From a virus (Duplodnaviria > Caudoviricetes), in IMG/VR virus record IMGVR_UViG_3300028048_000039, positions 160,001 through 224,000 of that record: a DNA stretch of 64,000 bases; one strand, 5' to 3'. Under the pieces are notes generated by a model. It worked only from the letters and a program-made list of their open reading frames with translations. It ran no database searches and was not told the DNA's origin. Shown piece by piece: positions 29,619-48,586 of this stretch (position 1 is the first letter of the stretch; every line of letters starts with the position of its first letter). The position numbers and the translations under genes are program-made.

Positions 29619-30470
29619 TTATGCCTTAACAGTGGAAAGAGCCACTTTAAGTTTCTCCTCCGCCTTCTTTCTTATCTGGCGAATTCTCTCAGATGTATAA
29701 TCCATCTTCTCACCAATCTCATAATCCTTGTACTGTCTATCAACACCAATTCCATATGCTAAACAGAGTATTTCCCTCTCCTTGGTAGATAATGTCAGCA
29801 TTGCCTTTCTCATATTGTCAGATATCTCATCTCTCTCGCTAGCCTCTTCAAAGGCATTCATGGAAGAGGTCCTGAGGTTAAACTCTTCATCCTGGACCTC
29901 ACGATTATCGTCGTCATTGTATGTCTCCTGGATATAGCTCAGGTCTACACCGTACAGGTCTGAACGGCTCTTAATCTTAATACCATAAAGTTCCTGGATG
30001 TAATTTATTAGCTCATCCTCTGTGGCTTCACGCTCGTGTTCCTGGAAAAACCTAGCCTTAGCCTTTTTAATCTTTGGCTGCATGGTATAGTTAGCTGGAA
30101 CCACGAGTGGAGCGGTTCTGGTGAGATAGAGGTTCACCCTCTGATGAATATAATGCCTTGCGAGTGTCCAGAATCTGGTACCTGTGGTAGCGTCATACTC
30201 TTCGAGTGCATCCTCGATACCAAGAATTGATTCCTGGAAAAGGTCATCGAAATCATTTCCGGTTCCTGCGAAGTCCTTAACGAGCTTGATAATGTATCTG
30301 AGGTTACCGGTGATAAGCTTATTCCTGGCTGTCACCTTCTCTTCCTCACTGGACTTCTCATCCTTATAGATGTTGATAAGCATCATTTCCTCCTCTACGG
30401 AGATTGTGTCATTTGCATTTGCTGCCTTAAAAATGGCATTCACAGTGTTTGTTCTCTCAATAAAATTCAT
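29619..30470 (-). CDS. phage-encoded sigma70-family RNA polymerase sigma factor
   Basis: region 2 ARNKLITGNLRYII..DDLFQES..G..YD..G.RF.T.A; region 4 LS.KEREIL..YGI..EIGE..TSERIRQI. Confidence 0.9.
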   Translation of the reverse strand: MNFIERTNTVNAIFKAANANDTISVEEEMMLINIYKDEKSSEEEKVTARNKLITGNLRYIIKLVKDFAGTGNDFDDLFQESILGIEDALEEYDATTGTRFWTLARHYIHQRVNLYLTRTAPLVVPANYTMQPKIKKAKARFFQEHEREATEDELINYIQELYGIKIKSRSDLYGVDLSYIQETYNDDDNREVQDEEFNLRTSSMNAFEEASERDEISDNMRKAMLTLSTKEREILCLAYGIGVDRQYKDYEIGEKMDYTSERIRQIRKKAEEKLKVALSTVKA

Positions 30471-30600
30471 ATCCTTCTCAAATTTTAAAATGTTAAATTA
30501 TTTCTTTCTTCACTTGTATATACTCCACCTATCACAAAATCTCACATATTAATATACAAAAATTTTATTGATATGTCAAGTCTTTTTCATAAAGATTACT

Positions 30601-30689
30601 ATCAAATCCTGTGCCAGACTATTCTTTCTGCCAAAGTTTTTTTTCGGTAACCCTTACATTAATATATATTGCAAATCCCGTGCCAAACT
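30601..30689 (-). promoter_or_regulatory. two sigma54-type (-24/-12) promoters upstream of the sigma gene
   Basis: - strand TGGCACGGGATTTGCA (30670-30685) and TGGCACAGGATTTGA (30602-30616). Confidence 0.7.
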
Positions 30690-30754
30690 ATCATTTCCTG
30701 GAAAAGATTTTTCATTGCGCAACGAAATTGCGTAGCTAACTAGCTCTGTTATAA

Positions 30755-31040
30755 TAAAAAAACCCCGGAAACCACGAGAAGCTTCCGGGGAGGCACGATG
30801 TAAGTAAGGTAAACAGGAAACGTTCTCTGCCATTTTTGACCAAGAGGGCCGGGACTAGCAAAACCCATTGATGTTAGTAATTGTTAAACGTATTAAAACA
30901 ATTGCTGCACGTTTCCTTAACTTTGGTCCCAGAACCAGTTTCACCCAACTCTGGGACAATGAGTAGAGGACAGCAAAACCGGGTTGCCCGGCAAAAAGGA
31001 GGTGTTTGGGAGGTTGCCGTCCTCAGAATACCTTTAAGTA
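30755..31040 (-). ncRNA. novel structured RNA displaying an anti-Shine-Dalgarno sequence
   Basis: sigmaA-type promoter at ~31044-31058; stems GAGGACGGCAA/TTGCTGTCCTC, GTCCCAGA/TCTGGGAC, AGGAAACGT/ACGTTTCCT; terminator CCCCGGAA/TTCCGGGG+T7; no credible ORF. Confidence 0.7.
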
Positions 31041-31077
31041 CAATGTAAATATACAAAAACTTTTTTAAAAAACAAAA

Positions 31078-31995
31078 TTAATCTTCATTTTCTTCTTCAA
31101 AATCTACATATCTGTCCAGCTTAATGAATTTAGGGGGGATATTATCTGTGGTATAGAACCCACACTTCGGCATATTCGGGTCAGTTTCGAAGTGGATGTT
31201 TTCAGGGAGCTTTTCTGTATTCACCTTAAGTACGGCATATATTCCTTCGTTCCTTGGATTCACTTGTGAGTTTGTCCAGTAGATTGGCTTTGCCCACCCA
31301 TCCATTTCATTTTTATCTATTCCACCCATGAAGTAAATCCTCTCAGGGTAATTGAACAGTTTATTCTTACTACCTGGCACTAGTCCAATTTTCATTATCT
31401 TCTTAAGGTTATACCTAGGAGTGTAATGGTAGAGGACCTTAGGAAGCTTATCCTTCTTCAGCTTATCTGTAAATTTACGCTCGCACTGTATGCGAACCCA
31501 CTGGTCATTCATGAACATGAAAGGAAAACCTTGGGCAAGATTAATCACACCGGGGTACCAGCCACAGTAATCTAGTGCACGTAGAACCAGCTTAATGTTA
31601 TCCCCAATGTTTGGAATCATCAGGAAAAATCTGTTCGGGTCATCCTCAAATGTCCCAAGCTGGAAATCCTCTAGCTGGAAATGTTTCTTGATGTAGTCCA
31701 TGGTTTTCTCAATTGGATAAGTCTTAATGAGGCCTTCGTCGAGTACTCCAGCCATCATCAGGGACAGTGGATTTGACATTGTTGGAGTACCGCTGGTTAA
31801 TGCATAGAGCTTTACTGCCTTATTAGGGTCACCCTTGCATTCACGAAACCATTCCTTTGGTGCTGGCTTCCTCTTCTTCCAATCAGCATATGCTTTATCA
31901 ATAGCTTTCTTAGCCTCAGCTACAATATCTACATTATTTATTTTCTTCTTCAGCATCTTCAATTCTTTTATATATTTTATTAAAGACTTCTTCAA
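31078..31995 (-). CDS. protein with C-terminal ADP-ribosyltransferase/Tpt1-like fold (putative)
   Basis: LYHYT..NL..I...GL.P, RIYF, FYT..NIPP..I pattern; true start may be 31956. Confidence 0.55.
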   Translation of the reverse strand: MKKSLIKYIKELKMLKKKINNVDIVAEAKKAIDKAYADWKKRKPAPKEWFRECKGDPNKAVKLYALTSGTPTMSNPLSLMMAGVLDEGLIKTYPIEKTMDYIKKHFQLEDFQLGTFEDDPNRFFLMIPNIGDNIKLVLRALDYCGWYPGVINLAQGFPFMFMNDQWVRIQCERKFTDKLKKDKLPKVLYHYTPRYNLKKIMKIGLVPGSKNKLFNYPERIYFMGGIDKNEMDGWAKPIYWTNSQVNPRNEGIYAVLKVNTEKLPENIHFETDPNMPKCGFYTTDNIPPKFIKLDRYVDFEEENED

Positions 31996-32437: not shown

Positions 32438-32567
32438 GGAAGGGGGTTCGGAGTCGAACCGATATTTCACGCTCCCAATAATTGTATTAATGATTATTGC
32501 TGTATGTTTATCTACTCGATAAACGAAAAATAATGCGTGTGTTTTTCCTATTAAACTATCCCCCTTC
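32438..32567 (-). ncRNA. tRNA-like RNA with ~60-nt structured insert in place of the anticodon loop
   Basis: GAAGGGGG/CCCCCTTC acceptor, TAGTTTAATAGGAAAAAC D-arm, CACGC/GCGTG stem, TCGG-TTCGACT-CCGA T-arm. Confidence 0.7.
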
Positions 32568-33290: not shown

Positions 33291-33317
33291 TTCCTTCTTT
33301 TCCTCCTATATTTTAAA

Positions 33318-33356
33318 AGCGGTATCATCCTCCGAGTGATTGGAAGACGACACCGC
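33318..33356 (-). terminator. intrinsic terminator closing the - strand island
   Basis: GCGGTGTCGTC/GATGATACCGC hairpin followed by TTTT. Confidence 0.55.
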
Positions 33357-33423
33357 CAAATTAACTATCTTCTTCACGAATCTCACTCCTCAAAACCTAT
33401 GTAAATAAACCTCTAGAACCTCA

Positions 33424-33777
33424 TTAGCAAATTCCCGTTTTTAAGTAATCACCATCTGGTGTATCAATTGTTATCTCATCGTATTCAAGGAAATGTTTTA
33501 CCTCGCCAATGTAATCAATGACATCCTCCTCCGTCAAGTCCTCTTGCTCATATTGAGTCGTGTTCTCCCAAAGTAGATTGATATACTCACCTTCTTCGTC
33601 TTTCTTAACCTCGTCAATGAATTCCTCTATCGGAATAATCATTCCAGTTCCTTCTACTATTCTCCAAGACTCATCCTCATATTCCCAGATGTAAGCGAGA
33701 AGATGAACAAACCTATTACCATCGTCATCCGTAAAGATGTTGTAGAGTTCGCACTCCATTGCTTTTTCTAATTTCAT
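33424..33777 (-). CDS. small acidic hypothetical protein
   Basis: SD variant AGGGAAGGT; sigma54-type site at 33833-33852. Confidence 0.8.
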   Translation of the reverse strand: MKLEKAMECELYNIFTDDDGNRFVHLLAYIWEYEDESWRIVEGTGMIIPIEEFIDEVKKDEEGEYINLLWENTTQYEQEDLTEEDVIDYIGEVKHFLEYDEITIDTPDGDYLKTGIC

Positions 33778-33871
33778 ATTGTACCTTCCCTTTTTAAGTT
33801 GTTAAACAATAACTGTGGACATTAATAGGTATAACAAATTCCGTGCCAAACTATCTATTTGATGATATTTT

Positions 33872-34066
33872 TTAGTTAGATAAAATACCATCTTTAATAT
33901 CAAGAAGAAGCGTAATAATTAAGCCAATAGGTGCAGTAAAGAAAAATCCCCACCAAAAAAACTTATGTTTTGTTTTCACTATTGTTTCAACAATGGAAAC
34001 AATAAAAATGTGTAGCACACCAAATAAGATAATCAGTTCAAATATACTCTGCTCCGTCATAGTCAT
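33872..34066 (-). CDS. small membrane protein
   Basis: hydrophobic; FFWWGFFFTAPIGLII. Confidence 0.65.
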   Translation of the reverse strand: MTMTEQSIFELIILFGVLHIFIVSIVETIVKTKHKFFWWGFFFTAPIGLIITLLLDIKDGILSN

Positions 34067-34072
34067 ATTTTT

Positions 34073-34927
34073 TTATTCATCCTCTTCACTCCACACTGCG
34101 GGTTGCTGCTCTGATTGAATCAGATATTTCTCTGCATACCGTATAATCTTTGCCCAATCATTTTCCTTGAAAGCCTTATCAATGTCTCCGCACTCTCCTT
34201 CAGATAAAGACATCTTTCCTTCTGGACGGTTTTCATCCAGATAGTTCATAAACCTGATTGCAAGGTCGTGCTTGGCGGCTTGATAGATTTTTTTACGAGG
34301 CTGTGGACGGAGTGATTTGAGGAAAGAATCAAGTTCTTCTTTTTCGTCAACACTTACTTCTCTTCCAGATGCAATATGTACTATTTCAAGAATGTGATTT
34401 AACTTATTTTTATCCTCTTCATTCCACTCATTCTTTGGCTGGGGTTTGAGGGATTTAAGCCAAGAAGATAATTTTTCTTTGTACTCATTTGACGGATGCA
34501 AATGGCCCGTACAACTTGGAATATCCATTGGAGGAAGTGTATCAGCGTATTTAATCATCTCAAGTATATCCATTAGTTTGTCTTCATCCTCTTCACTCCA
34601 CTCCGACTTCTGTTCTTTCTGCTTTTCAAGTTGCTCTTTGAGATAATAATTCTCTTCAATCAATTCACCAATTCTTGCATTAGATATTTGCAAGGCTTTC
34701 ATCAAATTACCTTGCTTTTCAAGCCAAACAAAAGCCTTATCCTTTTCTTCAGGTGACATATAACCACCAACCTGAATAATGCGAATAATTTTCTTTCTTA
34801 TCCTCTCATCCTCGCTTTCTTTAAGTTCTGGAATAAACAACTCACAAGCTTTCCGTAAGTCACTACCTGACGTACAATTTCTTTTAATGATTTCTATTGC
34901 CTCTTCTTTTGTCATAATTATTTCCAA
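34073..34927 (-). CDS. 'EWSEED' repeat protein, possibly C-terminally truncated
   Basis: paralog of 5544-7556; ends abruptly at WSEEDE. Confidence 0.75.
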   Translation of the reverse strand: MEIIMTKEEAIEIIKRNCTSGSDLRKACELFIPELKESEDERIRKKIIRIIQVGGYMSPEEKDKAFVWLEKQGNLMKALQISNARIGELIEENYYLKEQLEKQKEQKSEWSEEDEDKLMDILEMIKYADTLPPMDIPSCTGHLHPSNEYKEKLSSWLKSLKPQPKNEWNEEDKNKLNHILEIVHIASGREVSVDEKEELDSFLKSLRPQPRKKIYQAAKHDLAIRFMNYLDENRPEGKMSLSEGECGDIDKAFKENDWAKIIRYAEKYLIQSEQQPAVWSEEDE

Positions 34928-35099
34928 TTTATATTATTATCACTTTTCCTTGTAAAGTTTACAATGTCTTGCATTATTTCCTCTACTTTTTGCTTATCCC
35001 AGATGAAGACTGAGCCTATATAGTTATTAGGGTCTTCCATAATCTTATTCGTTTTTAGTTTAACAATACATTTTATCTATATACAAATATTGTGCAAAA

Positions 35100-35537
35100 C
35101 TATGCAAGTCCTGAAACAAATGTTGAAATTTCTTCAGCCTCATCCTCCGAGAATAACCTTTCAACCTTCTCACCATTCTTGGAGATTGCCTTCCAGACAG
35201 CGTTCACGTGGCGTTTTTCCTCATAGTAGTCATACCCGAACTCCTCAGCAAAGTCCTCAGCGGAGCTACAATTCTTCCAGTCGTAATATTCGCTGATGAT
35301 ACAATCCAACGCCCCGTTAATCATATCTTCAGTCTCGGTGATGCCTCTTTGATAGTTGTAGATGCTATCGTGGAATTTAAAGTCCTCAGCGACTTCTCCT
35401 CTCTTAATAGTTATTGTATAAGTGTAGTGAGTTGGGTCACCAGAATAACCCCTACCGAAAGCTCTCCTTTCCGTTCTCCTCTTATGTGCAGTTACCGAGA
35501 ACTCAATACCATTGTGCTTGTAATCAACTTTCATCAT
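35100..35537 (-). CDS. hypothetical protein (island gene)
   Basis: AGGAGGT SD; -24/-12 site at 35581. Confidence 0.85.
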   Translation of the reverse strand: MMKVDYKHNGIEFSVTAHKRRTERRAFGRGYSGDPTHYTYTITIKRGEVAEDFKFHDSIYNYQRGITETEDMINGALDCIISEYYDWKNCSSAEDFAEEFGYDYYEEKRHVNAVWKAISKNGEKVERLFSEDEAEEISTFVSGLA

Positions 35538-35608
35538 AATTGTACCTCCTTTCTTTAATTGGTTAAACTACTCTCTTGTATGCAAAAACCATTCCAGACT
35601 GATAAATC

Positions 35609-36133
35609 TTAGAGTTTATTTATCATCTTAAGCTGTAAATCCATACCTAACTCGGAGAAGTCAACGAACTTTTGTTCATTTCCAGAGTCATCGGTAATTA
35701 GGATGCTCATCTTCCTGCTCTTCTTATCAATGAAGACCCCTTCTACCTTAGTATAATTCCCGAAGATAATTTCATCTTCCAGACCCTTCACGAACCAGGC
35801 GTAAAAGTATTCATCGTGCTTTCCCTTCCTGATGACCAAGTCAATTATGTAATTAACAAGTGCATCATAACAATAAGTGAAAAGAAAGTCTTGCTCAGTC
35901 ATTACCTCAATATCTGGAAGGAGATGCCCATCGTCATCCAACCCACCATTCTCGCCAAGCTCATTAAGAACAGCCATTTCGTCACAAAAGATTACTGGCG
36001 ATTTATCGCCCCAGACCATTACTTGACCTTTATCAAATATGACATAGTTAAAATCCGCCTTATTGACATATTCCCCGAATGACATTCCCAAGTCAATGAG
36101 ATGTTTAATGAAATAATTCTTCTTAAAATTCAT
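35609..36133 (-). CDS. hypothetical protein
   Basis: ORF; GGGAGG in upstream gene end. Confidence 0.8.
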   Translation of the reverse strand: MNFKKNYFIKHLIDLGMSFGEYVNKADFNYVIFDKGQVMVWGDKSPVIFCDEMAVLNELGENGGLDDDGHLLPDIEVMTEQDFLFTYCYDALVNYIIDLVIRKGKHDEYFYAWFVKGLEDEIIFGNYTKVEGVFIDKKSRKMSILITDDSGNEQKFVDFSELGMDLQLKMINKL

Positions 36134-36136
36134 AGC

Positions 36137-36523
36137 CTATTCCTCCCAATTATAATAATTCAACCACGATATAATCTCGTCCATTACCTCTATGTCAAAT
36201 TTACTAACCCAAGTGGTCTCGTCAGATACATTAGTGAGTGAATGATGATACTCCTCATCAATCCAACATACATCATCATCAAAATCAACCTCAGCGACAT
36301 TGTACCCACAACAAGCATCAAAGTCCTGAAGAACCCAGTAGAGAACTCCGTCCTTGACATATATGCGTTTAATTCTCTCAGCGGTAAGTTCCTCATCATA
36401 GTACCTATAAACTATCTCGGTCTCTATGCTTCCACCATTTCTATTTACATACTCCTTGATGGTATCTACCATCTCCTTGTAGAGCTTCGTGTAAGCATTG
36501 TTAATCTTCGTCTCGTTAATCAT
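36137..36523 (-). CDS. acidic hypothetical protein
   Basis: strong SD. Confidence 0.85.
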   Translation of the reverse strand: MINETKINNAYTKLYKEMVDTIKEYVNRNGGSIETEIVYRYYDEELTAERIKRIYVKDGVLYWVLQDFDACCGYNVAEVDFDDDVCWIDEEYHHSLTNVSDETTWVSKFDIEVMDEIISWLNYYNWEE

Positions 36524-36631
36524 AATGTACCTCCTTTTTTCTTATTGTTAAACCTAAGAATACTGGGGGAGTGTCTTTTTCTCCCCCATATTCCGTTAAA
36601 CTAGTCCGCAACTGCGTACTACACCCCCATA

Positions 36632-37561
36632 TTAGACCATTAAAGTCTCTCTGTCAGCAACCTCGTCACCTACGAATGTGGAAACATAGACATTTCCCTT
36701 ATTGTCTTCCCATTCAATCCACTCCTTGTGGTCAGCGAGCTTATTAACCCTAATGCCAGTACCATACTTATTAGAGAGAGCTACAAGTCTCTTGAAAGTG
36801 ATGCACTCAGTCATTGTCATTGACTCATTATAATAATCTTTATTATAATAGGTCTCAGTAAGCTCGATGGTGAATTGATACTCTGGGTCAAGCATACCGA
36901 TAACATTACCATCATAGAACTGATAAGTCCTCGCCTCATTCAAGTCCATTGGGTAAGCACCATCGCAACACACCTGCCCCACGATGTTATCCTCATAGAC
37001 AACATACATAAAGACCTCGTCCATATCATCGGTCTCGTCATCGTACTTAATAACGCCTTGCCAGAGTGATACCTCTTTGCCGTTCACTACCACGCTATCA
37101 ACCTTCTCAAAGATGTCAAAGTCCACATTATCCCAACCACACACTTCGTTAAGGTCACGAACCATATCAAGCACCTTTTCCTTCTCATCCACGATTGGAA
37201 TAGGAGTAAAGTCATCGTCCATAATTCCCTCAGCAATGTTCTTAATCATCATCTCATAGATGTCATTGTGATAAGGACGAACCCAAGTACCATCTTCAGT
37301 ATAGACACCCTCGCCCGGAGCATAAGACAGCATCACCTCCAAGTGACCATCACGAACACGGAGAGCAAGAATGCGTCTCTCCTCATAGACTTCCTTCTCA
37401 CGAAGATAAACCACACTTGTAAATTCAGCGTACTCGCCATTTGGATTATCAACCCTGATAGCACCGCCCCACTCATTTACATAATTAACGATTGCATTAA
37501 CGAGATTGTCATAACCTCTTTCAACGATTGTCATTGCGTAATTGATAAGATTTTTTCCCAT
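36632..37561 (-). CDS. acidic hypothetical protein
   Basis: strong SD; -24/-12 site at 37613; N-terminus similar to 36137 and 42702 genes. Confidence 0.85.
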   Translation of the reverse strand: MGKNLINYAMTIVERGYDNLVNAIVNYVNEWGGAIRVDNPNGEYAEFTSVVYLREKEVYEERRILALRVRDGHLEVMLSYAPGEGVYTEDGTWVRPYHNDIYEMMIKNIAEGIMDDDFTPIPIVDEKEKVLDMVRDLNEVCGWDNVDFDIFEKVDSVVVNGKEVSLWQGVIKYDDETDDMDEVFMYVVYEDNIVGQVCCDGAYPMDLNEARTYQFYDGNVIGMLDPEYQFTIELTETYYNKDYYNESMTMTECITFKRLVALSNKYGTGIRVNKLADHKEWIEWEDNKGNVYVSTFVGDEVADRETLMV

Positions 37562-37635
37562 AATATACCTCCTTTTTTAAAATGTTAATAAATCAGTTTC
37601 CATAAATACTACTAACAAGTTCCGTGCCAAACTTC

Positions 37636-37812
37636 TTAGATTATGTAATTTTCTTCAAGTTTTTTGATAAATTCTCTTTCATCCATTTCATAGACCTCGT
37701 CTGCCGGAATGTCCAATGTTCCGATAACTCTTTCATTTTCAGCATCAATTACGATACTTCCACCATTTTCGTTACTTCTAAAGATGTAACCGCCTCTTTC
37801 AAATTCTTCCAT
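37636..37812 (-). CDS. small acidic protein (58 aa, not in ORF track)
   Basis: AGGAGGT SD then MEEFERGGYIF... Confidence 0.75.
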   Translation of the reverse strand: MEEFERGGYIFRSNENGGSIVIDAENERVIGTLDIPADEVYEMDEREFIKKLEENYII

Positions 37813-37871
37813 AATGTACCTCCTATTTTAAATTGTTCTCTATTATAATATACTCTCTTTTTCCGAAAATC

Positions 37872-38162
37872 TTACACTTCCAAGTCAAAAAGTTTATCTT
37901 TATCATCATATTGACGAATTAACTCTATGTCGTGAGTTTCTTCCATCCAGATTCTCCTCTTGTCATCAACATTGTCAAAAAGACCACAATCAGTACAAGC
38001 TTCTGCCAAGTTGTCAGTCGTTAATTTTCCATCACTTGAGAAGACCACGAAGGAATCTACTACTGGGTCTTCATCGGATTTAATCATCCCCAACCAAGTG
38101 TGAAAGGAGTTCTCATCCTTTCCTATGTAAATTATGTAAAAACGATTTTTCCAAATGCACAT
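37872..38162 (-). CDS. hypothetical protein
   Basis: SD; -24/-12 site at 38202. Confidence 0.8.
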   Translation of the reverse strand: MCIWKNRFYIIYIGKDENSFHTWLGMIKSDEDPVVDSFVVFSSDGKLTTDNLAEACTDCGLFDNVDDKRRIWMEETHDIELIRQYDDKDKLFDLEV

Positions 38163-38292
38163 ATCTCACCTCCTCTTTTAATTGTTCTACACTAATAGTC
38201 CTAACAAAGACCGTGCCAGAATTTAAAAAATAAGGGGGAAGAATGAAAAAAAATTCATCTTCCCCGCAAAAATCATAATTAGTCTTGGAGTA

Positions 38293-38463
38293 TTACTCGG
38301 CAACAGCGGTGGTATCAACGGCAACGCTATCAACAGCAACAGCGGTGGTGTCTTCAGCAACCTGCTCAAGACCCTGCTCCTCAACTACCTCTGCCTCATT
38401 GTTCTTGCAAGATACAAGTGCAAGGGCAAATACTACCAAGACTGCAAAAAGAATCTTCTTCAT
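38293..38463 (-). CDS. small surface lipoprotein (56 aa, not in ORF track)
   Basis: MKKILFAVLVVFALALVS-CKNNEAE...; lipobox; sigmaA-type promoter at ~38503; no SD. Confidence 0.8.
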   Translation of the reverse strand: MKKILFAVLVVFALALVSCKNNEAEVVEEQGLEQVAEDTTAVAVDSVAVDTTAVAE

Positions 38464-38668
38464 AGCAAACTTTATTTTTAATAGTTATTATTATTATTTC
38501 TGGCAAATATACAAAAATGTTTTCAAAAAAACAAATCTACCGGAAAAGTCTTACTCATCGTCCAGACTATTATTAAATAGTTCGTACAAGATATACAACA
38601 CAAAAAAAGTACATCCAACCGCACAAACTGATAACAATATCTTTAATAATAAGTAAAGCATCTTTCAT

Positions 38669-38974
38669 TTATTCTTTTATTATTTTTGGGTCATCATTAT
38701 AGTTCTCAAGCACCCACTCTAAAAGCAACTTTCTGTTTGTGGAATCAAGTTCACCATAAAACTTATTCATTCTCGCATATCCATTGTAATCGTATAGAAT
38801 ATAATTCCACTTCCCTATGATATGGTCAAGACTACAAGCCCACTTCACCTCCATAATAAAGGTTGGAAGATAGTCTTGCCTCTTCTCTCCATACATAGTC
38901 GTCCAGTCATAATAGTCGGACTTGTAATTCATACTGAAATAAAACCACTTGTTAATTGCGTTAATGTTGTTCAT
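38669..38974 (-). CDS. hypothetical protein
   Basis: SD; -24/-12 site at 39024. Confidence 0.8.
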   Translation of the reverse strand: MNNINAINKWFYFSMNYKSDYYDWTTMYGEKRQDYLPTFIMEVKWACSLDHIIGKWNYILYDYNGYARMNKFYGELDSTNRKLLLEWVLENYNDDPKIIKE

Positions 38975-39084
38975 AAATACCTCCTTCTTTAAAAAAGTAA
39001 AAATATGTTTTCTACCTTCTTACTATCAACTATCGTGCCAGAATGCTCCGGAATGCCGGTTTGGGTGAAAAAAGTTTTTCAATG

Positions 39085-39170
39085 CCTTTTTTTTTAAAAA
39101 AGGTGTGACGGAGACTATACTTTAGCTATTGATGTACTACTCTGACTCCGGTTTAACCCGAAACCAAACG
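39085..39170. repeat. GG(T/C)GTGACGGAGACTATA stem element
   Basis: copies at 27952, 39102, 42307; the 39.1 and 42.3 kb copies align over ~90 nt. Confidence 0.75.
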
Positions 39171-39300
39171 GCATCCATTTGTGCCGGTATTTCTACCTAT
39201 CTACTAACCCGGTGACCTTGCTCTCATTTCCATTGAGACCTCCTTCTTTAAAGTTAAACAATCAGTGAACACTAATAGTATATGCGAATATCGTGCCAGA

Positions 39301-39804
39301 CTACTCATTTCCGGAATCTTTTTTCCAAAATTTTTCCTCCTTGATGCCAACCCTATACCACCAAGACTCATCGTCAGCACCTATAACCCAATCAGTTTCC
39401 GGATTAACATCTGGAACATTCATCGTCTCTGCCATATCAGCAATAAGACTACAAGCACACTCAAAAGCTTCCTCTCCAGACTTGCAAGGATAAACCTCCG
39501 AGTAATAGTACCCATCAGTACCCATAGTTTCCGCAATTACGAAGGTAACCTTCTCATCAGTATCCTCATCCTCCTCTCTCTTGAGAACATTGAGAACATA
39601 ATCCCAAGCATCGTTGATTAAGTCCTCCAACTCATCTTCATAGTAATTCTCTGCATAAACTGCCAACGATACGCCATCTTTGCAGATTTCGCAAGTGTAA
39701 CTGCCATCGTGGCAGTAATCAGTAATCTTAATTTCCTTGCCTACTCTTTTAAGGTCTTTATTTGCTTCAGCAAGTGTATTCTCCCAATCGTTTCTTCTAT
39801 TCAT
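39301..39804 (-). CDS. acidic hypothetical protein
   Basis: start reset to ATG 39804, which follows an AGGAGGT SD. Confidence 0.85.
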   Translation of the reverse strand: MNRRNDWENTLAEANKDLKRVGKEIKITDYCHDGSYTCEICKDGVSLAVYAENYYEDELEDLINDAWDYVLNVLKREEDEDTDEKVTFVIAETMGTDGYYYSEVYPCKSGEEAFECACSLIADMAETMNVPDVNPETDWVIGADDESWWYRVGIKEEKFWKKDSGNE

Positions 39805-39820
39805 ATTATACCTCCTATTT

Positions 39821-40057
39821 TTAATCAAGATTAAAATTCTCCTTGCAAAACTCTTTGCCATCAAAGATTACTGAAAACATTTCGCTGGAATTTGCGAAAC
39901 AATAATAGTCCAAGTCCTCCAATGATAGACCATTTTCCTTTGCGATTTCCTCCAGACGCTTGTCAATGAAAGCGATTTGTTCCGGAGTATAATCGTCTTC
40001 AAAATCGTCAATAAGGCTTGCTCTAATGCTTTGGTAAGTAATTTTAGTATCTTCCAT
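39821..40057 (-). CDS. small acidic protein
   Basis: SD; -24/-12 site at 40111. Confidence 0.8.
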   Translation of the reverse strand: MEDTKITYQSIRASLIDDFEDDYTPEQIAFIDKRLEEIAKENGLSLEDLDYYCFANSSEMFSVIFDGKEFCKENFNLD

Positions 40058-40196
40058 ATTATACCTCCTTTTTTAAGTGTTAGACAATAAGTGTTTCCAT
40101 ATATACTAATAACAAGTTCCGTGCCAGACTTTCAAAAAATAAGGGGGAGAACAAAATTTTTTTCATCCTCCCCACAAACCAAAACACACAAACAAA

Positions 40197-40442
40197 CTAT
40201 GAAACCCTCTTCTTATAATATCTGTCAGCAGAATAAGTATCGCTTCCATCTTCCTCCGTAACCTCAGCATCCTCAAGGGCAAAACCCATCTCACTCATTA
40301 GGTAGTCACAATACAAGTGTTCGTGCTTCCAATCACCCCACTCAATCACAACAAGAACTCCGTCATCGCCATCTGGAACTACATCCTCAAAATAAAGGTC
40401 ACTCTTCCTTAACTTCTCCCTGACTTTATCAACATCTATCAT
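40197..40442 (-). CDS. small acidic protein
   Basis: SD; WGDWKHEH motif. Confidence 0.8.
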   Translation of the reverse strand: MIDVDKVREKLRKSDLYFEDVVPDGDDGVLVVIEWGDWKHEHLYCDYLMSEMGFALEDAEVTEEDGSDTYSADRYYKKRVS

Positions 40443-40528
40443 AGATACCTCCTTTTTTAATAGTTAATAATCTATGTCCGCAACTGCGTACTACACATCC
40501 CTTAATAAGCAACAATTGTTCCAGAATG

Positions 40529-40870
40529 TTAATCTTCGTCAGTTTCTACTCCAACTTCGTTGTAATCAAAGATGTCTTCCTTGTTTTCCTGCATCCATTC
40601 AGCGATGTCCACAAGTGCATCAGTGCCTATGTTAGCATTATCCCACCAATCGCTTCCATCACCACTACTGGCAAAGAAGATAAGTCTTCCATTCTTCTTT
40701 AGCTCAACACTATCAAGTGTGTATATGAAATAGTCATCTTCATTATCCCTAACGATTGGGCAATCATCCAAGTAGCTGACCTCAAGCGTGTCCTTACCGG
40801 ACTCCTTCATTATATTGGTGATTATCTCTATTGCTTCGTTCTCTATTTCTGCAAGTTTTTCTCTCATCAT
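40529..40870 (-). CDS. small acidic protein
   Basis: SD. Confidence 0.8.
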   Translation of the reverse strand: MMREKLAEIENEAIEIITNIMKESGKDTLEVSYLDDCPIVRDNEDDYFIYTLDSVELKKNGRLIFFASSGDGSDWWDNANIGTDALVDIAEWMQENKEDIFDYNEVGVETDED

Positions 40871-40950
40871 ATTGTACCTCCTTTTTTATAGTGTTAATAA
40901 AATCAGTTATCAGTTTCCGGAAGATGCCGGTGCTTATTCCGGCACTCTCG

Positions 40951-41214
40951 CTACATTTCCTCGTCCTCCGCAATCTCCTTCTCAATTCTCTTCAAGATGT
41001 TCATTGCTTCAGTCTTCGCCATTGCCCTGACCATTTGAGCAACATTTTTACCGAAAGCATCACTCCTGAACTCTTCTACCTCTTTGCTGTACTCTATTAT
41101 GAGCATCGCAAGTTTAAGGTCGTCAATGTTCTTGTTGCTGAACTCTGCAACCTTCTCATCTACTTTGTCCTTTATATCTGCCATAAGGACTCCGGCAACA
41201 TTTAATCCAATCAT
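40951..41214 (-). CDS. small helical protein
   Basis: SD; -24/-12 site at 41277. Confidence 0.8.
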   Translation of the reverse strand: MIGLNVAGVLMADIKDKVDEKVAEFSNKNIDDLKLAMLIIEYSKEVEEFRSDAFGKNVAQMVRAMAKTEAMNILKRIEKEIAEDEEM

Positions 41215-41316
41215 ATTGTACCTCCTTTTTTAAGTTGTTAGTAAAATCAGTTAATTCGTGTGGACATTAACATACTTGCGAATATCGTGCCAAACTCTTC
41301 ATTTCTGGAAAAAATT

Positions 41317-41577
41317 TTACATTTCTCTCTCAAAAATTTTGCAGATAGTGTGATTTTCACAATAATAGCCGTCCTGATAAATTTCAAAACCTCCGTTCTT
41401 GTACTCATCAATTTTGATTTCATCCGCATCAAAATTCTCTACATAAGTTGTTGTTTCATTTTCCAATGTGGAAGCAACTTCTGCAAGTGCTTCTTCCTTT
41501 GTCTTGAAGACATCAACCTTTAAATTTTCGTCAGTTATATCCCAGACCGATTGTGTTACTACTACAAATACTTTCAT
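41317..41577 (-). CDS. small acidic protein
   Basis: SD. Confidence 0.8.
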   Translation of the reverse strand: MKVFVVVTQSVWDITDENLKVDVFKTKEEALAEVASTLENETTTYVENFDADEIKIDEYKNGGFEIYQDGYYCENHTICKIFEREM

Positions 41578-41598
41578 ATTATACCTCCTTTTTAAGTG

Positions 41599-42120
41599 TT
41601 AATCTACTACTCCATTACCATAATAGAGATTGAAACTTCTTCCTTCTGAAATAAGACATCTCCAAAGATAATAATCTTCTTCCATTTGTTCATCCTGAAA
41701 TTTATGATAACTACCATTACAATAGCGTAACCTATTATTTTCCCTATACATTTTCTCGCACACCTCATCAAATGTACCTTCAAGTTCATAAGTCCTGATA
41801 GTATCCTCCTTATGCGGATAGACGTGATGCCTTACAACGCCATCTTTGTCGGCATATTCCCATACATCGTGTTCATAGTGGCTTTCACAGACTACTTTTA
41901 TTTTTTCGTTCCACTTCTTAACTATGCGAATAATGTTATCAATTTGCTTACAAGCAAGGTCAATAGCATAGTCATCGCTTCTTAAATAAGTCCAACGACT
42001 TTTTTCATACTTGAGTTCCTTTGTAACATAACCAACAAAGTCCTTTTCGTGATACAACGGCATTTTGTCAATGTGATAGAACGCCATCAAATACTTTAAT
42101 TCTTGTTTTGTGTAACTCAT
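41599..42120 (-). CDS. hypothetical protein
   Basis: SD; LRYCNG and YYGNGVVD motifs. Confidence 0.85.
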   Translation of the reverse strand: MSYTKQELKYLMAFYHIDKMPLYHEKDFVGYVTKELKYEKSRWTYLRSDDYAIDLACKQIDNIIRIVKKWNEKIKVVCESHYEHDVWEYADKDGVVRHHVYPHKEDTIRTYELEGTFDEVCEKMYRENNRLRYCNGSYHKFQDEQMEEDYYLWRCLISEGRSFNLYYGNGVVD

Positions 42121-42433
42121 AATGTACCTCCTTTTTTAGATGTTAGACAATCGTGTTCATTAAGATATACCTGAGAACTCCGGAAATCTTACAAGGGAAG
42201 GTTTTTTTCAACCCTCCACTCTTCTATATTCAAATTCTATGCCACACTTTCAAAATTCCGGCATTTCCGGCAAAAAAATTTATCAATCTCCTTTTTTTTA
42301 AAAAAAGGCGTGACGGAGACTATACTTCAGCGATTTACTTACTGCTTGGTCTCCGGTTTAACCCAGAAACAAAATCCGGCACACTAATACTATTGCAAAT
42401 AGTGTGCCAGACTACTCATTTCCGGAAATTTTT

Positions 42434-42700
42434 TTAATAACACTTCACAACTCTCTCCGGCATTACCTTCTTGGGAAGCTTCCCCTCCAGCGTTGCCCAC
42501 TTCACATCGTGGTCTTCAACATATTCCGGAATAACCCAATCAGTAAATATACCATCGCAGTTTGCTTTCTTCCCATACTTAATCTCGGCAATCTTCGCCT
42601 TGACTATCGGTTTCGTGTCAATCCTCATTGAAAGGGTAAAGCAAACATAATCGCCCTCTTTCAACTCAATACCAAACTTGTCACATACCTTCCTGTCCAT
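42434..42700 (-). CDS. hypothetical protein (KOW/SH3-like 'DKFGIELKEGDYV')
   Basis: ORF coupled to 42702 gene. Confidence 0.75.
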   Translation of the reverse strand: MDRKVCDKFGIELKEGDYVCFTLSMRIDTKPIVKAKIAEIKYGKKANCDGIFTDWVIPEYVEDHDVKWATLEGKLPKKVMPERVVKCY

Positions 42701-42701
42701 A

Positions 42702-43367
42702 TTATTTCTCCTCCAATGCTTTAAGAATACTCTTTAAGTCCTCAAGTGAAAAGTCAGCAAGTTCGTGCCAATTCTTCTCATTTGTCATAATGTCATCATC
42801 TCCGTAGATGTGGAAATAGATAATGCCTTCTCCCTCCATTTGAAACGCAAGGTCAACCTCCGGTAACTCAAGACTGCTCAAACCACAAGCACCCTCTTCG
42901 CCAATAACGGCAGAAAGTTTCATTGGATGCTCCTCGTCAGTATCCATCAGTATAGCAGAAATCTTTTTCCTGACATCCTCCCACTCTTCAAGGCCATCGT
43001 ACTCATCAATGCTATCAAGGATGGAGATGATAGTATCTGCCTTGTAAGTGAGACCATCGCTACCATCCAAGCAATACCAATTATCCTCGTCAGCAATCAT
43101 TTCCTTTTTCGTTGGGGTTTCAAGATAAGTCCTCATAATAGGAAGGAAATAGCAAAGTATGTCATTATCTACAATGCGAAGGGCATAGCAATAATACTCC
43201 TCCAATCTATCTTCCTCATTGATTGCATAACCATAGATTGTATCAAAGTTATGTTCAGGACTTGTATTCAGGAAACCTCCGTTCCTGATGACTACTTCCT
43301 TAATCGCAACGTAAGCATCGTTAAGGGATTTAAAAATTTCCTTTCTCGTCTTTTCAATTTTGTTCAT
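42702..43367 (-). CDS. acidic hypothetical protein
   Basis: SD; -24/-12 site at 43407. Confidence 0.85.
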   Translation of the reverse strand: MNKIEKTRKEIFKSLNDAYVAIKEVVIRNGGFLNTSPEHNFDTIYGYAINEEDRLEEYYCYALRIVDNDILCYFLPIMRTYLETPTKKEMIADEDNWYCLDGSDGLTYKADTIISILDSIDEYDGLEEWEDVRKKISAILMDTDEEHPMKLSAVIGEEGACGLSSLELPEVDLAFQMEGEGIIYFHIYGDDDIMTNEKNWHELADFSLEDLKSILKALEEK

Positions 43368-43508
43368 AATGTACCTCCTTTTTTAATGATTATCTACTCT
43401 ACTACTAACAAATATCGTTCCAAAAACAACAAAAAAGTGGGGAAGACCAAAAATTTTTTTAATCTCCCCACAATTCGTCTAACACTGGAAACCTCCGGAA
43501 ACCATTGA

Positions 43509-43862
43509 TTACTTGACTATCACTTCATAATTCCTTACCAAGTAGTCAGCAAACCTCTTCATTGTGTCAGTATCAAACTCGTCAATGTCAGTTTCAACCT
43601 CTTCCTCGTCGCCCAATGTGATATCTCCATCCTCATAATAGATGATGTCAAGTTTCCTCCTCTCATTGTACTCGTTCCCCTCGCAATCCTCAACTTCAAC
43701 ATCATACCGGAAACTACCACCCAAGTCAGTCGCATCAATGGTAAAGATACCTTCTGCATCTTCCTCAATGCCCAATGCACTACGGAGCAATTCAATCTCT
43801 CTCTTAATGAAGCCTTTAAGGTCTTCTCTCGCCTTTGTGATAATCGTGTCAGTGTAATTCAT
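43509..43862 (-). CDS. highly acidic small protein
   Basis: SD. Confidence 0.85.
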   Translation of the reverse strand: MNYTDTIITKAREDLKGFIKREIELLRSALGIEEDAEGIFTIDATDLGGSFRYDVEVEDCEGNEYNERRKLDIIYYEDGDITLGDEEEVETDIDEFDTDTMKRFADYLVRNYEVIVK

Positions 43863-43880
43863 AATGTACCTCCTTTCTCT

Positions 43881-44306
43881 TTAATCGTTAGTAATATCGT
43901 AGCAACCAATAATGCCATCCACATCCCCATAGAAGAAACGAACATAAAAAGTCCTCCCCTTGTAAGTGATGTCATAGCACATCTTCATAATGTACTCGTT
44001 AGTACCATCATCGCAACCATCGTCTATTCCGCAATCAACATACACACACTTGTCAATAGCATCCTTTGCCATAAGACTATCAATACAAGCGGAAATCCCT
44101 CTATCGTCATACACATAGTCATCAAGGATGTCCATCAACTCTCTCTTCACTTTCTCGCCATCATCCTCATCTTTCTCGCCATTGAGCAAGTCAAGACACT
44201 CGCCCAACTTCTCAAGGACATCTTCCTCTGCATCAGTAAGACCTTCCTTACTAATAAGGTCGTGATAGATACCGCTAATTCTTTTCAATAAGTCTTTTTT
44301 TATCAT
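43881..44306 (-). CDS. highly acidic small protein
   Basis: SD; -24/-12 site at 44358. Confidence 0.85.
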   Translation of the reverse strand: MIKKDLLKRISGIYHDLISKEGLTDAEEDVLEKLGECLDLLNGEKDEDDGEKVKRELMDILDDYVYDDRGISACIDSLMAKDAIDKCVYVDCGIDDGCDDGTNEYIMKMCYDITYKGRTFYVRFFYGDVDGIIGCYDITND

Positions 44307-44434
44307 AATGTACCTCCTTTTTTAGATGTTAGTAATCAAGTGAACTACTTTTTAGTATGCAAATACTTCGCCAAACTTGGTATTTCCGGAAACTTTTTTG
44401 CAAAATATACCGCAATTGCGTACTACTGAACTCG

Positions 44435-44716
44435 TTAGAAGAAATGTATCTCCGCAAAGTCGTTGTCCTTGTCCATCTCCTCCAAGATAGTCTTGCAGAC
44501 CTCCCCGAACTCTTCGTCCTCAAGATGACCTTCCAAGAACTCTCTTCCTAACTCCATATAACCTTCATCCTCCGAGAGCCAATAATCTCCGTTGCTGTCA
44601 TCTCCCACTTCTTTAACCCAAGAAACGAACTCGTCACAATCTCCGTAACTTGATACCGGAACTTTGTCGCTATACTCTACCTTGTAAGTCTTGCAGATGT
44701 GTAAACCATAACTCAT
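44435..44716 (-). CDS. highly acidic small protein
   Basis: SD. Confidence 0.8.
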   Translation of the reverse strand: MSYGLHICKTYKVEYSDKVPVSSYGDCDEFVSWVKEVGDDSNGDYWLSEDEGYMELGREFLEGHLEDEEFGEVCKTILEEMDKDNDFAEIHFF

Positions 44717-45013
44717 ATTATACCTCCTTTTTTAATAGTGTTGAACAATCAAGTGAACTCTCTCTCTTCATTTATACTCCGGAACTCCGGAAACCTTACA
44801 TCAACCTTTAAGTTTTTTCATCTTTGTTGTAACTCTTCTTCATATAGACCTCCTTCTTTAAAGTGTTAGACAAATAAGTGTGAACTATGCCGCAACTGCG
44901 TACTACTGATAACCTCTTAACAAATATCGTTCCGGAATTTAAAATCTCCCAAACTTTTTTTCGTTCCACCAATGATATATACTCATCCTCTCCGGAAATC
45001 TTGCATCATACCT

Positions 45014-45535
45014 TCAGGTTTCTTCATCTTTCTCATCATCATATGGAGTTTCCTCGTTGATGGAAACCTTCGCAGCTTCCTCTGCTTCCTCCTCATTATT
45101 ATAGATAAAGTCACTCTCATCGTACAAGCATCCATCCTCTCCATACACCTCATACCCATACTTCTTCTCATTGTTAGTGATAGTGATGCCGCACTCTTTG
45201 TACTCGGTGGTCTTTACCACGTTCTTGGAGTCATAGATAGTTTCATCATCTCCCTCATACGTAGTGTAAAGATATCCATACATCCCATCAATGTAGCTCT
45301 CAATGGTCACAAGCGTATCGCCTTTCTTCCATACCTGGAAGTTGATGTCATCGGTATCAATTGGGATGAAATGCTCCTTCTCAAAGTATTCCTTAATCTT
45401 CTCATAGCTTTCCAGTTCATAGTAAGCGTGAAGTGCCTCCTGGTTATAGCTGCATCTACTATCAAGACCACCACCTGCTGGTTCAGACTCTTCGGAAATA
45501 TAAGGTTTTCCATACCTATCAACAAATCTACTCAT
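45014..45535 (-). CDS. highly acidic hypothetical protein
   Basis: SD; consensus -24/-12 site at 45590. Confidence 0.85.
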   Translation of the reverse strand: MSRFVDRYGKPYISEESEPAGGGLDSRCSYNQEALHAYYELESYEKIKEYFEKEHFIPIDTDDINFQVWKKGDTLVTIESYIDGMYGYLYTTYEGDDETIYDSKNVVKTTEYKECGITITNNEKKYGYEVYGEDGCLYDESDFIYNNEEEAEEAAKVSINEETPYDDEKDEET

Positions 45536-45626
45536 ATGATACCTCCTTTTTTAATGGGTTAAACAATTAAGTGTGGACAATAATATACTTGCAAAATCCG
45601 TGCCAAACTGATAAAAAAAGGGAAGA

Positions 45627-46751
45627 TTAAGTTTTCATCTTCCCCCCTTTCTGCCCATTACACTTTCTACAAATCATCTGCAAATTCTCAAGAATTGTCT
45701 TTCCACCTCGCCACCAAGGAATTATGTGGTCTCCCTCCATCTCTTCAAAGGTATGATGCTCTCCGCATATTGGACAAACCCCCTCTTGTTTCTCATAAGC
45801 CGTTCTCTTGTCCACATTGCTAAATGTCCTCTTGGAAAGCTTCCTTGCAATGTCCTCGCTCTCATTGGAAAGCACGTACTCATAAATGCCCTTCTTGTCA
45901 GTAACTTCCTCGTTCTCCATCAATGAGTGAATTTTCTCCTCCAAGGTCTCGCAATCATACTCATTGCCCTTATAAGTGTCATAGAGCTTTCCCCAGTTTA
46001 AGCCGCACATCTCCTTTCTATAATACTTTCCGGTATTAAACGTCCCCTCAATCCAAGAAATCACATTGTTGAAGTAATCCCAAAGCTCACTGGCATCCTC
46101 ATCGTGCTGATGCTCTGCCATATAGTCAGCAATCTTTCCATCACTTATCCAGGAAAGCGCAGTCTCAAGGTACTCTTGCCTAATCGGACTTCCCTTTACA
46201 AACCTATTACCAATCTTATAGGCCACACAATTGGTCTTGCTGAACTTCTTCTTTGCATCGGTAAGCCACTTTCCGGTATAGTTGATATTAAGCAGCTCCT
46301 GGTCAGTAAGCTTTTCCCCGGCAATGTTAATCGTCCTAAACCAATCCAACCTCTCCTTGTCATTGCCATTGCAGACGTAGATATCCACTGGATAAGATAG
46401 AATTCTCTCCTGCTCAACGTCAGTCAAGTTATGGAAGTACATAGGAACACCCTCAACCTCAACCGAGAAGTCCCCGGAAACGTACTGGCAAAAGGAAATA
46501 GTCCTCTGCTGTCCATCAAGGACTTCATAAGTGCCATCCTCATTTTCCGCCCAGTACATAACGTTAAGCGGAAACCCCTTAAGGATAGTTTCAATCACTG
46601 CTGCCCTTTGCTTGTCCTTATAAACGAACTCCCTTTGATATGCCGGACGGATGTTAAGCTTTCCACTGAAGCCGGAAACTCCACCCTCGGCATTGTCAAC
46701 GTAGTCCTTGCTAATCTCCTTGATTGTGTAATTCTTGTGTTCTATTCTCAT
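45627..46751 (-). CDS. DUF262 + HNH endonuclease (GmrSD-like N-terminus)
   Basis: RPAYQREFVY, LDGQQR, F..IN..G..L; C-terminal CPIC..GDHIIPW..GG.T..NLQ..C..CN. Confidence 0.9.
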   Translation of the reverse strand: MRIEHKNYTIKEISKDYVDNAEGGVSGFSGKLNIRPAYQREFVYKDKQRAAVIETILKGFPLNVMYWAENEDGTYEVLDGQQRTISFCQYVSGDFSVEVEGVPMYFHNLTDVEQERILSYPVDIYVCNGNDKERLDWFRTINIAGEKLTDQELLNINYTGKWLTDAKKKFSKTNCVAYKIGNRFVKGSPIRQEYLETALSWISDGKIADYMAEHQHDEDASELWDYFNNVISWIEGTFNTGKYYRKEMCGLNWGKLYDTYKGNEYDCETLEEKIHSLMENEEVTDKKGIYEYVLSNESEDIARKLSKRTFSNVDKRTAYEKQEGVCPICGEHHTFEEMEGDHIIPWWRGGKTILENLQMICRKCNGQKGGKMKT

Positions 46752-46958
46752 AATGTACCTCCTACTCTTATTGGGTTAATACTTTATCGTCTATTGACGT
46801 GTATGCAAATTATGTGCCAAACTTTACTTTCTGCAGAAAATTTTAGTCTAATAGTACACAATTTGAAATAGTAGGGTTAGATAGGTATGTAGAAGATAAC
46901 CCTCATTATGGACATAGATTTACTATTAGCGGAAAAGAAACTTACGCAAGAATTTTAA

Positions 46959-47960: not shown

Positions 47961-48208
47961 AATGTACCTCCTTTTTTAAAGTGTTAAACATAATGATACC
48001 TCACAAAAACCATACCGCACTCATCAAATATATAGAAAAAAATTGAAAAAAGCAAAAAAATCAACCCCTCAATCCCACCAGGAAACCGGAAACCCGGTTA
48101 ATAATAGCCGCATTTGCGTACTACACCAGGTTTCGGAAAGCGGCAGTCCCAACTGACAAATTGTCCACTCTTTCAGCCAGGAACCGCCGGAAACCTGGAT
48201 GCTACTCG

Positions 48209-48586
48209 TTACTTGATGGCGGCAATTGCCTTATAAACCTCTTCCACCGCCTTGTTGACCTGCTCAATTGTCTCATAGACCTTCGCAATGACCTCGTCAG
48301 CTACCTCGTCCCTCTCGTCTTCCTCCTCTTCCTCGTCATCATAGCCAACCTCATAGTCATACCAGTCCACGTAGCCAAGCCACTTCGCAATCTCGTCCTT
48401 TTCGTACCACAAGATGTCGTTCACTTCCTCTTCAGTGAGCGCTTCTACGCCCTCTCTATCCTCGATGTACTCCTCCACCTCATCGCAGTCGCCCTTTTCC
48501 TTGAGGACTTCAAGTGTGTCAAGTCCGCCACCCCAAGCCGGGAATTCATTGAGGGACACTTCCTCATACTTCTTAATTTCTACCAT
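48209..48586 (-). CDS. very acidic hypothetical protein (first gene of the island)
   Basis: SD; FPAWGGG..VNDILW; DDEEEEEDE. Confidence 0.85.
   Translation of the reverse strand: MVEIKKYEEVSLNEFPAWGGGLDTLEVLKEKGDCDEVEEYIEDREGVEALTEEEVNDILWYEKDEIAKWLGYVDWYDYEVGYDDEEEEEDERDEVADEVIAKVYETIEQVNKAVEEVYKAIAAIK

Follow-up and report, generated by a model that had tools for sequence, protein, structure and literature searches.

A structured phage RNA predicted to display an anti-Shine-Dalgarno sequence beside an island of Shine-Dalgarno-led genes

Bacteroidota keep a hidden anti-Shine-Dalgarno (anti-SD) sequence on their ribosomes, and almost none of their genes use SDs. The retention of this anti-SD, and any use made of it, have to date been linked to nothing but the bS21 gene of the host itself. 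The locus described here raises the matter for a giant phage, which tags ~24 genes with a near-perfect extended SD and encodes an adjacent RNA displaying the matching anti-SD, or 16S-tail, sequence. What might such an RNA do to those genes? The window analysed (64,000 nt) corresponds to positions 160001-224000 of an IMG/VR phage record that is 344.6 kb long and has a completeness estimate of 93%, and the phage host is probably a member of the Bacteroidota.

The RNA lies in a gene-free gap of ~600 nt between a 305-aa ORF (31078-31995, -) and a sigma70-family gene (29619-30470, -) in which Pfam regions 2 and 4 were detected. The upstream half of the gap holds, on the - strand, a complete transcription unit consisting of a promoter, ~280 nt and a terminator. 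The first-pass annotation had drawn this unit from a sigmaA-type promoter to a terminator. The unit stands (~283 nt, roughly 31038-30756), but its promoter is not of the E. coli sigma70 type; its form agrees with the consensus of Bacteroidota sigmaA promoters, and transcription is predicted to start near 31038 on the - strand. Near-identical promoters make up a recurrent class in the window, with 8 full matches vs 2.7 expected, members of the extended class being found also at 4215, 13989, 16784, 38504 and 48025. It is kept in two relatives, L003 and L019, in which a terminator of other sequence occupies the equivalent place. The unit and its proposed targets comprise the following features, all on the - strand:

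31046-31076, -: Bacteroidota-type promoter, with -33 TTTG (31076-31073), a 19-nt spacer and -7 TATATTTA (31053-31046)
31014-31024, -: P1 outer stem, 5' strand, 11 nt, present in the MFE and centroid folds
30993-31013, -: displayed single-stranded stretch of 21 nt with two ACCUCC copies, P(unpaired) 0.94-1.0
30978-30992, -: P1 inner hairpin (6 bp, loop CAA) plus U4, terminator-like
30966-30976, -: P1 outer stem, 3' strand, from the predicted folds
30926-30957, -: P2 hairpin, 13 bp with 4 G-U pairs, hypervariable yet paired
30812-30918, -: P3 core domain, with closing stem GGAAACG/CGUUUCC, GCAGCAA motif, internal hairpins and UGUU tail
30756-30790, -: intrinsic terminator, an 11-bp stem (30790-30763) with 7 GC pairs, then U7
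33300-48610, -: proposed target island, comprising ~24 genes whose leaders have A5-GGAGGU at their end, then 6-7 nt and ATG

The unit thus has its own promoter and terminator and no conserved ORF. When it was compared with the Rfam 15 covariance models, no family reached the gathering threshold; tRNA-Leu alone passes Rfam thresholds in the window, and a permissive search of 30400-31400 gave a top score of 25.7 bits against a threshold of 85 bits. Two known identities were rejected: 6S RNA, as the fold consists of three separate domains instead of a long rod with a bubble and no 6S model matched, and tmRNA or a tRNA-like RNA, as ARAGORN reports tRNA-Leu only. We regard the unit as the gene of a previously undescribed phage non-coding RNA, conserved, predicted to be structured and independently transcribable.

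Just 3' of the RNA terminator and upstream of the sigma gene's two sigma54-type sites lies a conserved palindrome (ACGCAAT, 5 nt, TTGCGCA; window 30716-30734, L003:4503-4521, L007:226-244), and related TACGCA...TGCGTA palindromes are found upstream of other island promoters. The 305-aa ORF on the other side of the RNA (window 31078-31995, -) matches no Pfam family and is insertion-like. L004 lacks it and has tRNA-Leu(taa) immediately next to the promoter of the RNA, and its L003 counterpart is followed by a second copy of the tRNA-Leu 3' end; the ORF could be a mobile gene.

The whole RNA is predicted to fold into three domains, P1, P2 and P3 (z = -3.4), none of 200 shuffles being as stable. 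Both the MFE and the centroid folds reproduced the first stem that had been described earlier, together with its GCCGGG/CCCGGU hairpin and the open stretch of 21 nt with two CCUCC motifs. The partition function also agreed with the claim that the CCUCC region is unpaired, giving P(unpaired) of 0.94-1.00. The outer stem of P1 has 11 bp, and P3 is a multi-hairpin domain of 101 nt with a 7-bp closing stem. Several G-U pairs in P1 and P2 would be A-C mismatches if read from the opposite strand, and the functional RNA strand is therefore taken to be the - strand.

Relatives of the RNA provided an independent view of this fold. As MAFFT misaligns P1 and P2 between lineages, the helices were compared via independent folds and not by a formal covariation test. 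One relative, L007 (95%), spans P2 to the terminator. Its P2 (L007:4-35) differs from that of the window at 12 of 32 nt (37%) and keeps the hairpin, with two double compensatory and three one-sided pair changes; outside P2, the two RNAs are ~96% identical. A second lineage is represented by L003, L004, L005 and L019, the last of which came from a metagenome scan. Its sigma is 49% identical, and its gene order is tRNA-Leu, a 299-aa ORF in some cases, the RNA, sigma and a DUF3310 gene, with the RNA positioned as in the window. Folded independently, the RNA of this lineage is predicted to have the architecture of the RNA in the window (z = -6.0): P1, in which the outer stem is followed by an open CU-rich stretch and an inner hairpin, then the P2 hairpin, P3 and a terminator. 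In L003 and L019, a stem of the same architecture and other sequence takes the place of the P1 outer stem, and a longer hairpin that of P2. P3 is 101 nt long in both lineages and 73% identical between the window and L003. No recognisable sequence is shared between the window and lineage 2 in the P1 and P2 stems; CUCCUUUUUG, on the other hand, is identical in lineage 2 at 10 of 10 positions and unpaired there with P = 0.99-1.0. The loop is thus predicted to be open in three sequences (window, L003 and L019) from two lineages, with P of 0.94-1.0. This suggests selection on the displayed motif within an otherwise rewritten 5' domain. The terminator-like inner hairpin with its U-run also recurs, the L003 counterpart with U6 being likewise scored terminator-like; since this is the case in both lineages, a short isoform of 55-60 nt, consisting of the seed plus this terminator, is plausible.

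The same comparison bears on the simplest alternative, namely that AGGAGG on the + strand (at 30997) serves a small ORF. The sole start codon in range yields 7 codons, gene calls in L003, L004 and L005 leave the RNA region empty, and the lineages are separated by indels in P1 and P2; we regard this explanation as hardly credible.

The genes that the loop could address lie in the adjacent island. Most of them sit behind sigma54-type TGGCAC-N5-TTGC sites, and their leaders are highly uniform, consisting of this site, a short conserved element, A5-GGAGGU, 6-7 nt and ATG. Loop positions 31003-30993 form an 11-mer that perfectly complements 13 of these leaders, which agrees with the pairing of up to 11 bp that the first-pass annotation had proposed for most island genes. 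Across the 345-kb genome, the leader 11-mer, AAAAAGGAGGT, is present in 13 copies on the - strand and two on the + strand, one of the latter being the antisense of the RNA loop; by our own estimate from base composition, ~0.1 occurrences per strand would be expected. Similarly, AAGGAGG is found on the - strand in 22 copies between genome positions 190 and 210 kb, compared with roughly one copy per 10 kb outside this region. Crude gene calls over the whole genome gave 399 genes (25 in the island and 374 others). According to these calls, AGGAGG is present in 18 of the 25 island genes (72%) vs 3% of the 374 others, so that genes outside the island do mostly lack an SD, as had been noticed before, and the median SD duplex energy is -13.1 kcal/mol in the island vs -1.6 kcal/mol for other genes. 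From this contrast, the phage overall appears to resemble an SD-poor Bacteroidota genome, with the island as the exception. When loop-leader duplexes were computed for the 5' regions of all genes, the median was -15.0 kcal/mol for the island vs -4.2 for the others (Mann-Whitney p = 1e-12), and 18 of the 30 best-ranked were island genes, which had been expected to top such a ranking. For the consensus leader, the predicted duplex with the loop (-14.9 kcal/mol) is slightly stronger than that with the 16S tail (-13.6 kcal/mol).

A second, smaller cluster of ~9 genes with AAGGAGG-type SDs of a different flavour (AAGGAGGAATAAT) was seen outside the window, at G000 141.8-151.1 kb (+).

If the loop and the leaders belong together, they should be found in the same phages. 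Homologs of the sigma protein are rare; two further lineages, G001 (L028) and G002 (L029), were reached via the sigma alignment. G001 is a complete genome of 361 kb with ~18 sigma54-type promoters, and G002 a 30-kb fragment with ~26, in each case located in the syntenic island and followed by SD-less leaders; no AAAGGAGG cluster was found in the G001 genome. In both, the RNA upstream of sigma carries the P3 signature (compensated closing stem, 2 nt, ACAGCAA), and the displayed 5' domain is absent. In L009 (sigma 31% identical), the P3 core directly follows tRNA-Met and the leader is SD-less; this contig is cut upstream. Compensation in the P3 closing stem is seen in L003, L009 and L029. The check for co-conservation that had been suggested earlier therefore came out in favour of a link: both features occur in two lineages and neither occurs in two, for a small sample of four lineages, and an SD island without the displayed motif was not found among the relatives compared in these four lineages. 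Loop and leaders also vary together. In lineage 2, four independent SD leaders read AAAGGAGA, i.e. GGAG then A, vs GGAGGU in the window, and the loop reads A-CUCC there vs ACCUCC in the window. A link of the RNA with SD leaders is supported by these comparisons, with very few events behind both the co-occurrence and the co-variation, the 5' domain being present in only two independent lineages.

As for the direction of change, the sigma54-type TGGCAC-N5-TTGC array (window 33300-48970, -) is kept in L030 (G001 132-152 kb), L032 and L029 (G002), where the leader consensus of the SD-less relatives is ACAATTAAAATT, ~8 nt and ATG. Since the leaders of these distant relatives lack an SD, the SD would be a derived addition in the window lineage. 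The anti-SD domain may likewise be an add-on in lineages that also gained SD leaders.

In L028, an unpaired stretch of 10-12 nt (L028:4297-4312) is complementary to the leader consensus of its own phage; the 10-mer complements 9 of 20 leaders, 1 of 200 shuffles being as good, and the P3 of L028 also holds a sense copy of this consensus. The idea of an 'anti-leader' in the RNA of every lineage was not retained, as it was seen in L028 and not in L029, and serves as a lead only.

Searches for further lineages gave little. No match was found to 1 kb around the RNA in a nucleotide search of GenBank phages, or to the 305-aa neighbour and sigma in single-protein searches of IMG/VR, and tblastn of sigma against phages returned distant matches only (<=30% identity). 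Exact-pattern scanning of IMG/VR with the loop 19-mer gave none, and the pattern CAGCAA...TTTAACAATTA gave one chance match, inside a 1155-aa ORF. The P3 two-block pattern had no match in IMG/VR and four in metagenomes, of which L019 alone is real; L020-L022 were discarded as GC-rich, coding-like DNA with none of the features of the RNA. A sigma54 site combined with an SD leader matched 17 times in IMG/VR, each time singly and in unrelated, generally SD-using phages, and thus yielded no new lineage. Relatives of the 305-aa protein (L012-L018) have different contexts, and a descriptor scan did not find the RNA module in them. In L026 and L027 (sigma 28-31% identical), no RNA was found directly upstream of sigma. 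A PF00158 (sigma54 activator domain) match in a 918-aa ORF at 237-239 kb was not taken as evidence of a phage enhancer-binding protein, because the same model matches in all 14 control genomes.

The loop also resembles the ribosome itself. The first-pass annotation had pointed to a likeness to the 3' tail of Bacteroidota 16S rRNA, and this was confirmed: 12 of 12 consecutive nucleotides (31006-30995) are identical in the window lineage. The 16-mer GGAACACCTCCTTTCT matched more than 120 genome contigs, almost all of them from Bacteroidota (including Flavobacteriaceae, Bacteroidaceae, Porphyromonas, Alistipes and Segatella), and it forms the last bases of the 16S gene in three of three contigs checked. 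The four nucleotides 5' of the motif, AACA, are identical to 16S and do not complement the leaders; 3' of the motif, the loop has a U5 run that fits the A5 of the leaders, at a place where 16S has UUUCU. The loop sequence thus appears to lean both ways, towards leader pairing and towards 16S mimicry, because AACA fits 16S only and U5 fits the leaders better than 16S. In lineage 2, the 16S-like motif is 3 nt shorter.

In the SD-less lineages, a 13-mer, UCUCCUUUCUUUU, is identical in L028:4349-4361 and L029:4718-4730, near the 3' end of both RNAs, and CUCCUUUCU within it is an exact copy of the end of the 16S tail. The 13-mer is predicted to be single-stranded in L029 and to lie within the stem of the terminator in L028.

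The 16S likeness suggests that the loop might work as a decoy, soaking up a tail-binding factor (bS21 in Bacteroidia) and restoring SD recognition as an on-switch. Ribosomes short of bS21 would then regain SD reading and provide a private translation channel for the SD-led island. The identity to the tail includes the AACA that leaders do not complement, the motif occurs twice in the loop, a bS21 gene was not found in the phage, the early timing of a host-type promoter suits an enabler, and co-occurrence with SD leaders is predicted equally. Ribosomes of F. johnsoniae deficient in bS21 translate the SD-bearing rpsU mRNA better (PMC9976891, PMC7797042, PMC13000453), bS21 is bound by the unrelated OLE RNA through an anti-SD mimic (PMC12054373), and the relatives L028 and L029 carry CUCCUUUCU. 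However, lineage 2 has only CUCC, falling short of the tail, both lineages have U5 and not UUUCU, the L028 motif is base-paired within the terminator stem, and the tail pocket forms on the assembled 30S platform, so that binding of free bS21 to the RNA is hypothetical. We consider a decoy of this kind, the main rival to pairing with the leaders, unlikely. The fuller version, according to which an RNA copy of the 16S 3' tail strips or titrates bS21 or another factor and turns SD-blind into SD-reading ribosomes with a private channel, seems slightly less probable again.

A different reading follows from the part of the RNA that is most widely shared. The P3 core is common to all relatives and to a paralog, a promoter-driven RNA of ~327 nt outside the window (G000 83,295-83,621 (+), equal to L155:1296-1622; fold z = -3.3). 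Its 3' end consists of a P2-CAAAG-P3 module plus U8 and directly precedes tRNA-Ala. The module recurs in tRNA-like genes with a 59-68-nt insertion in the anticodon loop (window 32438-32567 (-), L155:1123-1241 and L004:1146-1282), where the layout of hairpin, ACAGCAA and hairpin corresponds to a circularly permuted P3 module; the L155 and L004 copies score 45-47 bits with the Rfam tRNA model. Since the module recurs in the paralog and in these insertions, the RNA would belong to a new family of modular RNAs associated with the tRNA clusters of phages. The 5' domain of the paralog contains an apparently unpaired GGAGGG. Between the halves of an apparent split tRNA at L155:411-862 (G000 ~82.4-82.9 kb), there is also a weak group I intron match of 31 bits, below threshold.

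From this, it may be argued that the RNA is real and acts via its P2-P3 module on a target unrelated to SDs, for example the processing of tRNA clusters or a phage or host protein, the pyrimidine loop being a protein site or spacer and its match to the leaders incidental. P3 is the sole part that L009, L028 and L029 have in common with the other relatives, the RNA gene always adjoins tRNAs and the phage sigma gene, and L029 has a CU-rich stretch with no SD leaders. On the other side, we estimate that an exact 11-mer complement in an accessible loop would be expected at ~1e-4 per RNA; moreover, the motif is the only conserved sequence in the otherwise rewritten P1 domain, and the 5' domain is missing exactly where SD leaders are missing. 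This reading is somewhat unlikely in our judgement.

The constant neighbourhood of the sigma gene raises the possibility that the element is not a free RNA at all. It might act in cis, as a long leader or attenuator for the sigma gene that lies downstream, or be an element acting at the DNA level; synteny with sigma is kept in every lineage, and two terminator-like hairpins stand in series. Beyond the strong terminator, however, come the conserved palindrome, a pair of sigma54-type sites and a near-consensus promoter of sigma's own, another gene lies between the RNA and sigma in L009 and L028, and the compensatory changes and G-U pairs point to selection at the RNA level. We therefore deem a cis-acting leader very improbable.

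The best-supported reading, which we hold tentatively and at somewhat below an even chance, is that the RNA is a trans-acting anti-SD regulator pairing with the island leaders. According to this model, host RNA polymerase would transcribe the RNA from the Bacteroidota-type promoter, and the transcript would end at its own terminator (~280 nt) or earlier, at the terminator-like inner hairpin (~55-60 nt). The 5' domain, present in some lineages only, would hold the anti-SD sequence open in an internal loop, allowing for its pairing with the A5-GGAGGU leaders of sigma54-driven island mRNAs (11 bp, ~-15 kcal/mol). Such pairing would cover the ribosome-binding region; translation throughout the island would thereby be lowered or set in time, and the stability of the mRNAs might change as well. 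That the RNA is made, that it pairs with the leaders in cells and in which direction it acts are inferred here from sequence. In favour of a trans-acting regulator, the U5 run of the loop matches the A5 of the leaders and not the UUUCU of 16S, and sRNAs are usually laid out as a seed with a terminator-like hairpin behind it. Against it, a single RNA would have to titrate ~24 mRNA species, the AACA flank matches 16S and not the leaders, and L029 has an unpaired UCUCCUUUCUUUU though the leaders of its phage are SD-less. In addition, a host-type promoter implies a timing that would be unexpected for an off-switch, and blocking an SD may not matter in an SD-ignoring host unless the duplex reaches the A-rich region. 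Silencer and decoy mechanisms cannot be told apart by sequence.

Several known systems resemble parts of this picture. The C-rich anti-SD sRNAs of Bacillota (RsaE/RoxS, RNAIII, LhrC) likewise use unpaired C-rich loop motifs to pair with the SDs of many mRNAs, with one RNA for many targets and a seed followed by a terminator. They share no homology in sequence or structure with the phage RNA (no Rfam match), which differs from them in being phage-encoded, in belonging to a host phylum that normally ignores SDs, in having targets that share one engineered leader and not natural SDs, and in carrying a full copy of the 16S tail and not CCC/UCCC. T4 RegB similarly enables a phage to shut off its own messages via GGAG in their SDs (reviewed in PMC3014915), but is a protein endoribonuclease, whereas a base-pairing RNA is proposed here. 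GOLLD and ROOL (PMC5737381) are also structured, ORF-free phage RNAs of tRNA neighbourhoods; the present RNA is much smaller, has no Rfam match and is of another architecture.

As for the ribosomal side, Bacteroidia ribosomes are SD-blind as bS21, bS18 and bS6 hold the 16S tail, and ribosomes lacking bS21 read the SD of rpsU (PMC7797042, PMC9976891, PMC13000453). In this bS21/rpsU autoregulation, too, SDs are read only with a freed anti-SD, and a strong extended SD is limited to particular genes; that system consists of a single host gene with a protein as the switch, compared with ~24 phage genes and a tail-copying RNA here. P6 of the OLE RNA is a further case of a structured non-coding RNA copying the 16S anti-SD of its own organism, and its mimic is bound by bS21, a ribosomal protein located beside the anti-SD (PMC12054373). 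The OLE mimic is paired with an SD-like strand, whereas the phage motif is predicted to be single-stranded; OLE is a 600-nt RNA of Bacillota without homology to the phage RNA, for which bS21 binding is hypothetical. Other giant Bacteroidota phages carry bS21 genes of their own (PMC9723584).

The comparisons above delineate a new family of phage RNAs that share a recurrent module; among the relatives, SD tags and the displayed anti-SD are present together and absent together. The system is simple to test, as it comprises one RNA and one leader. If the decoy reading is true, it would constitute an RNA equivalent of the bS21 genes of other giant Bacteroidota phages. If either silencing or unmasking is true, the RNA would represent the first RNA-level viral handle on SD/anti-SD recognition in an SD-blind host.
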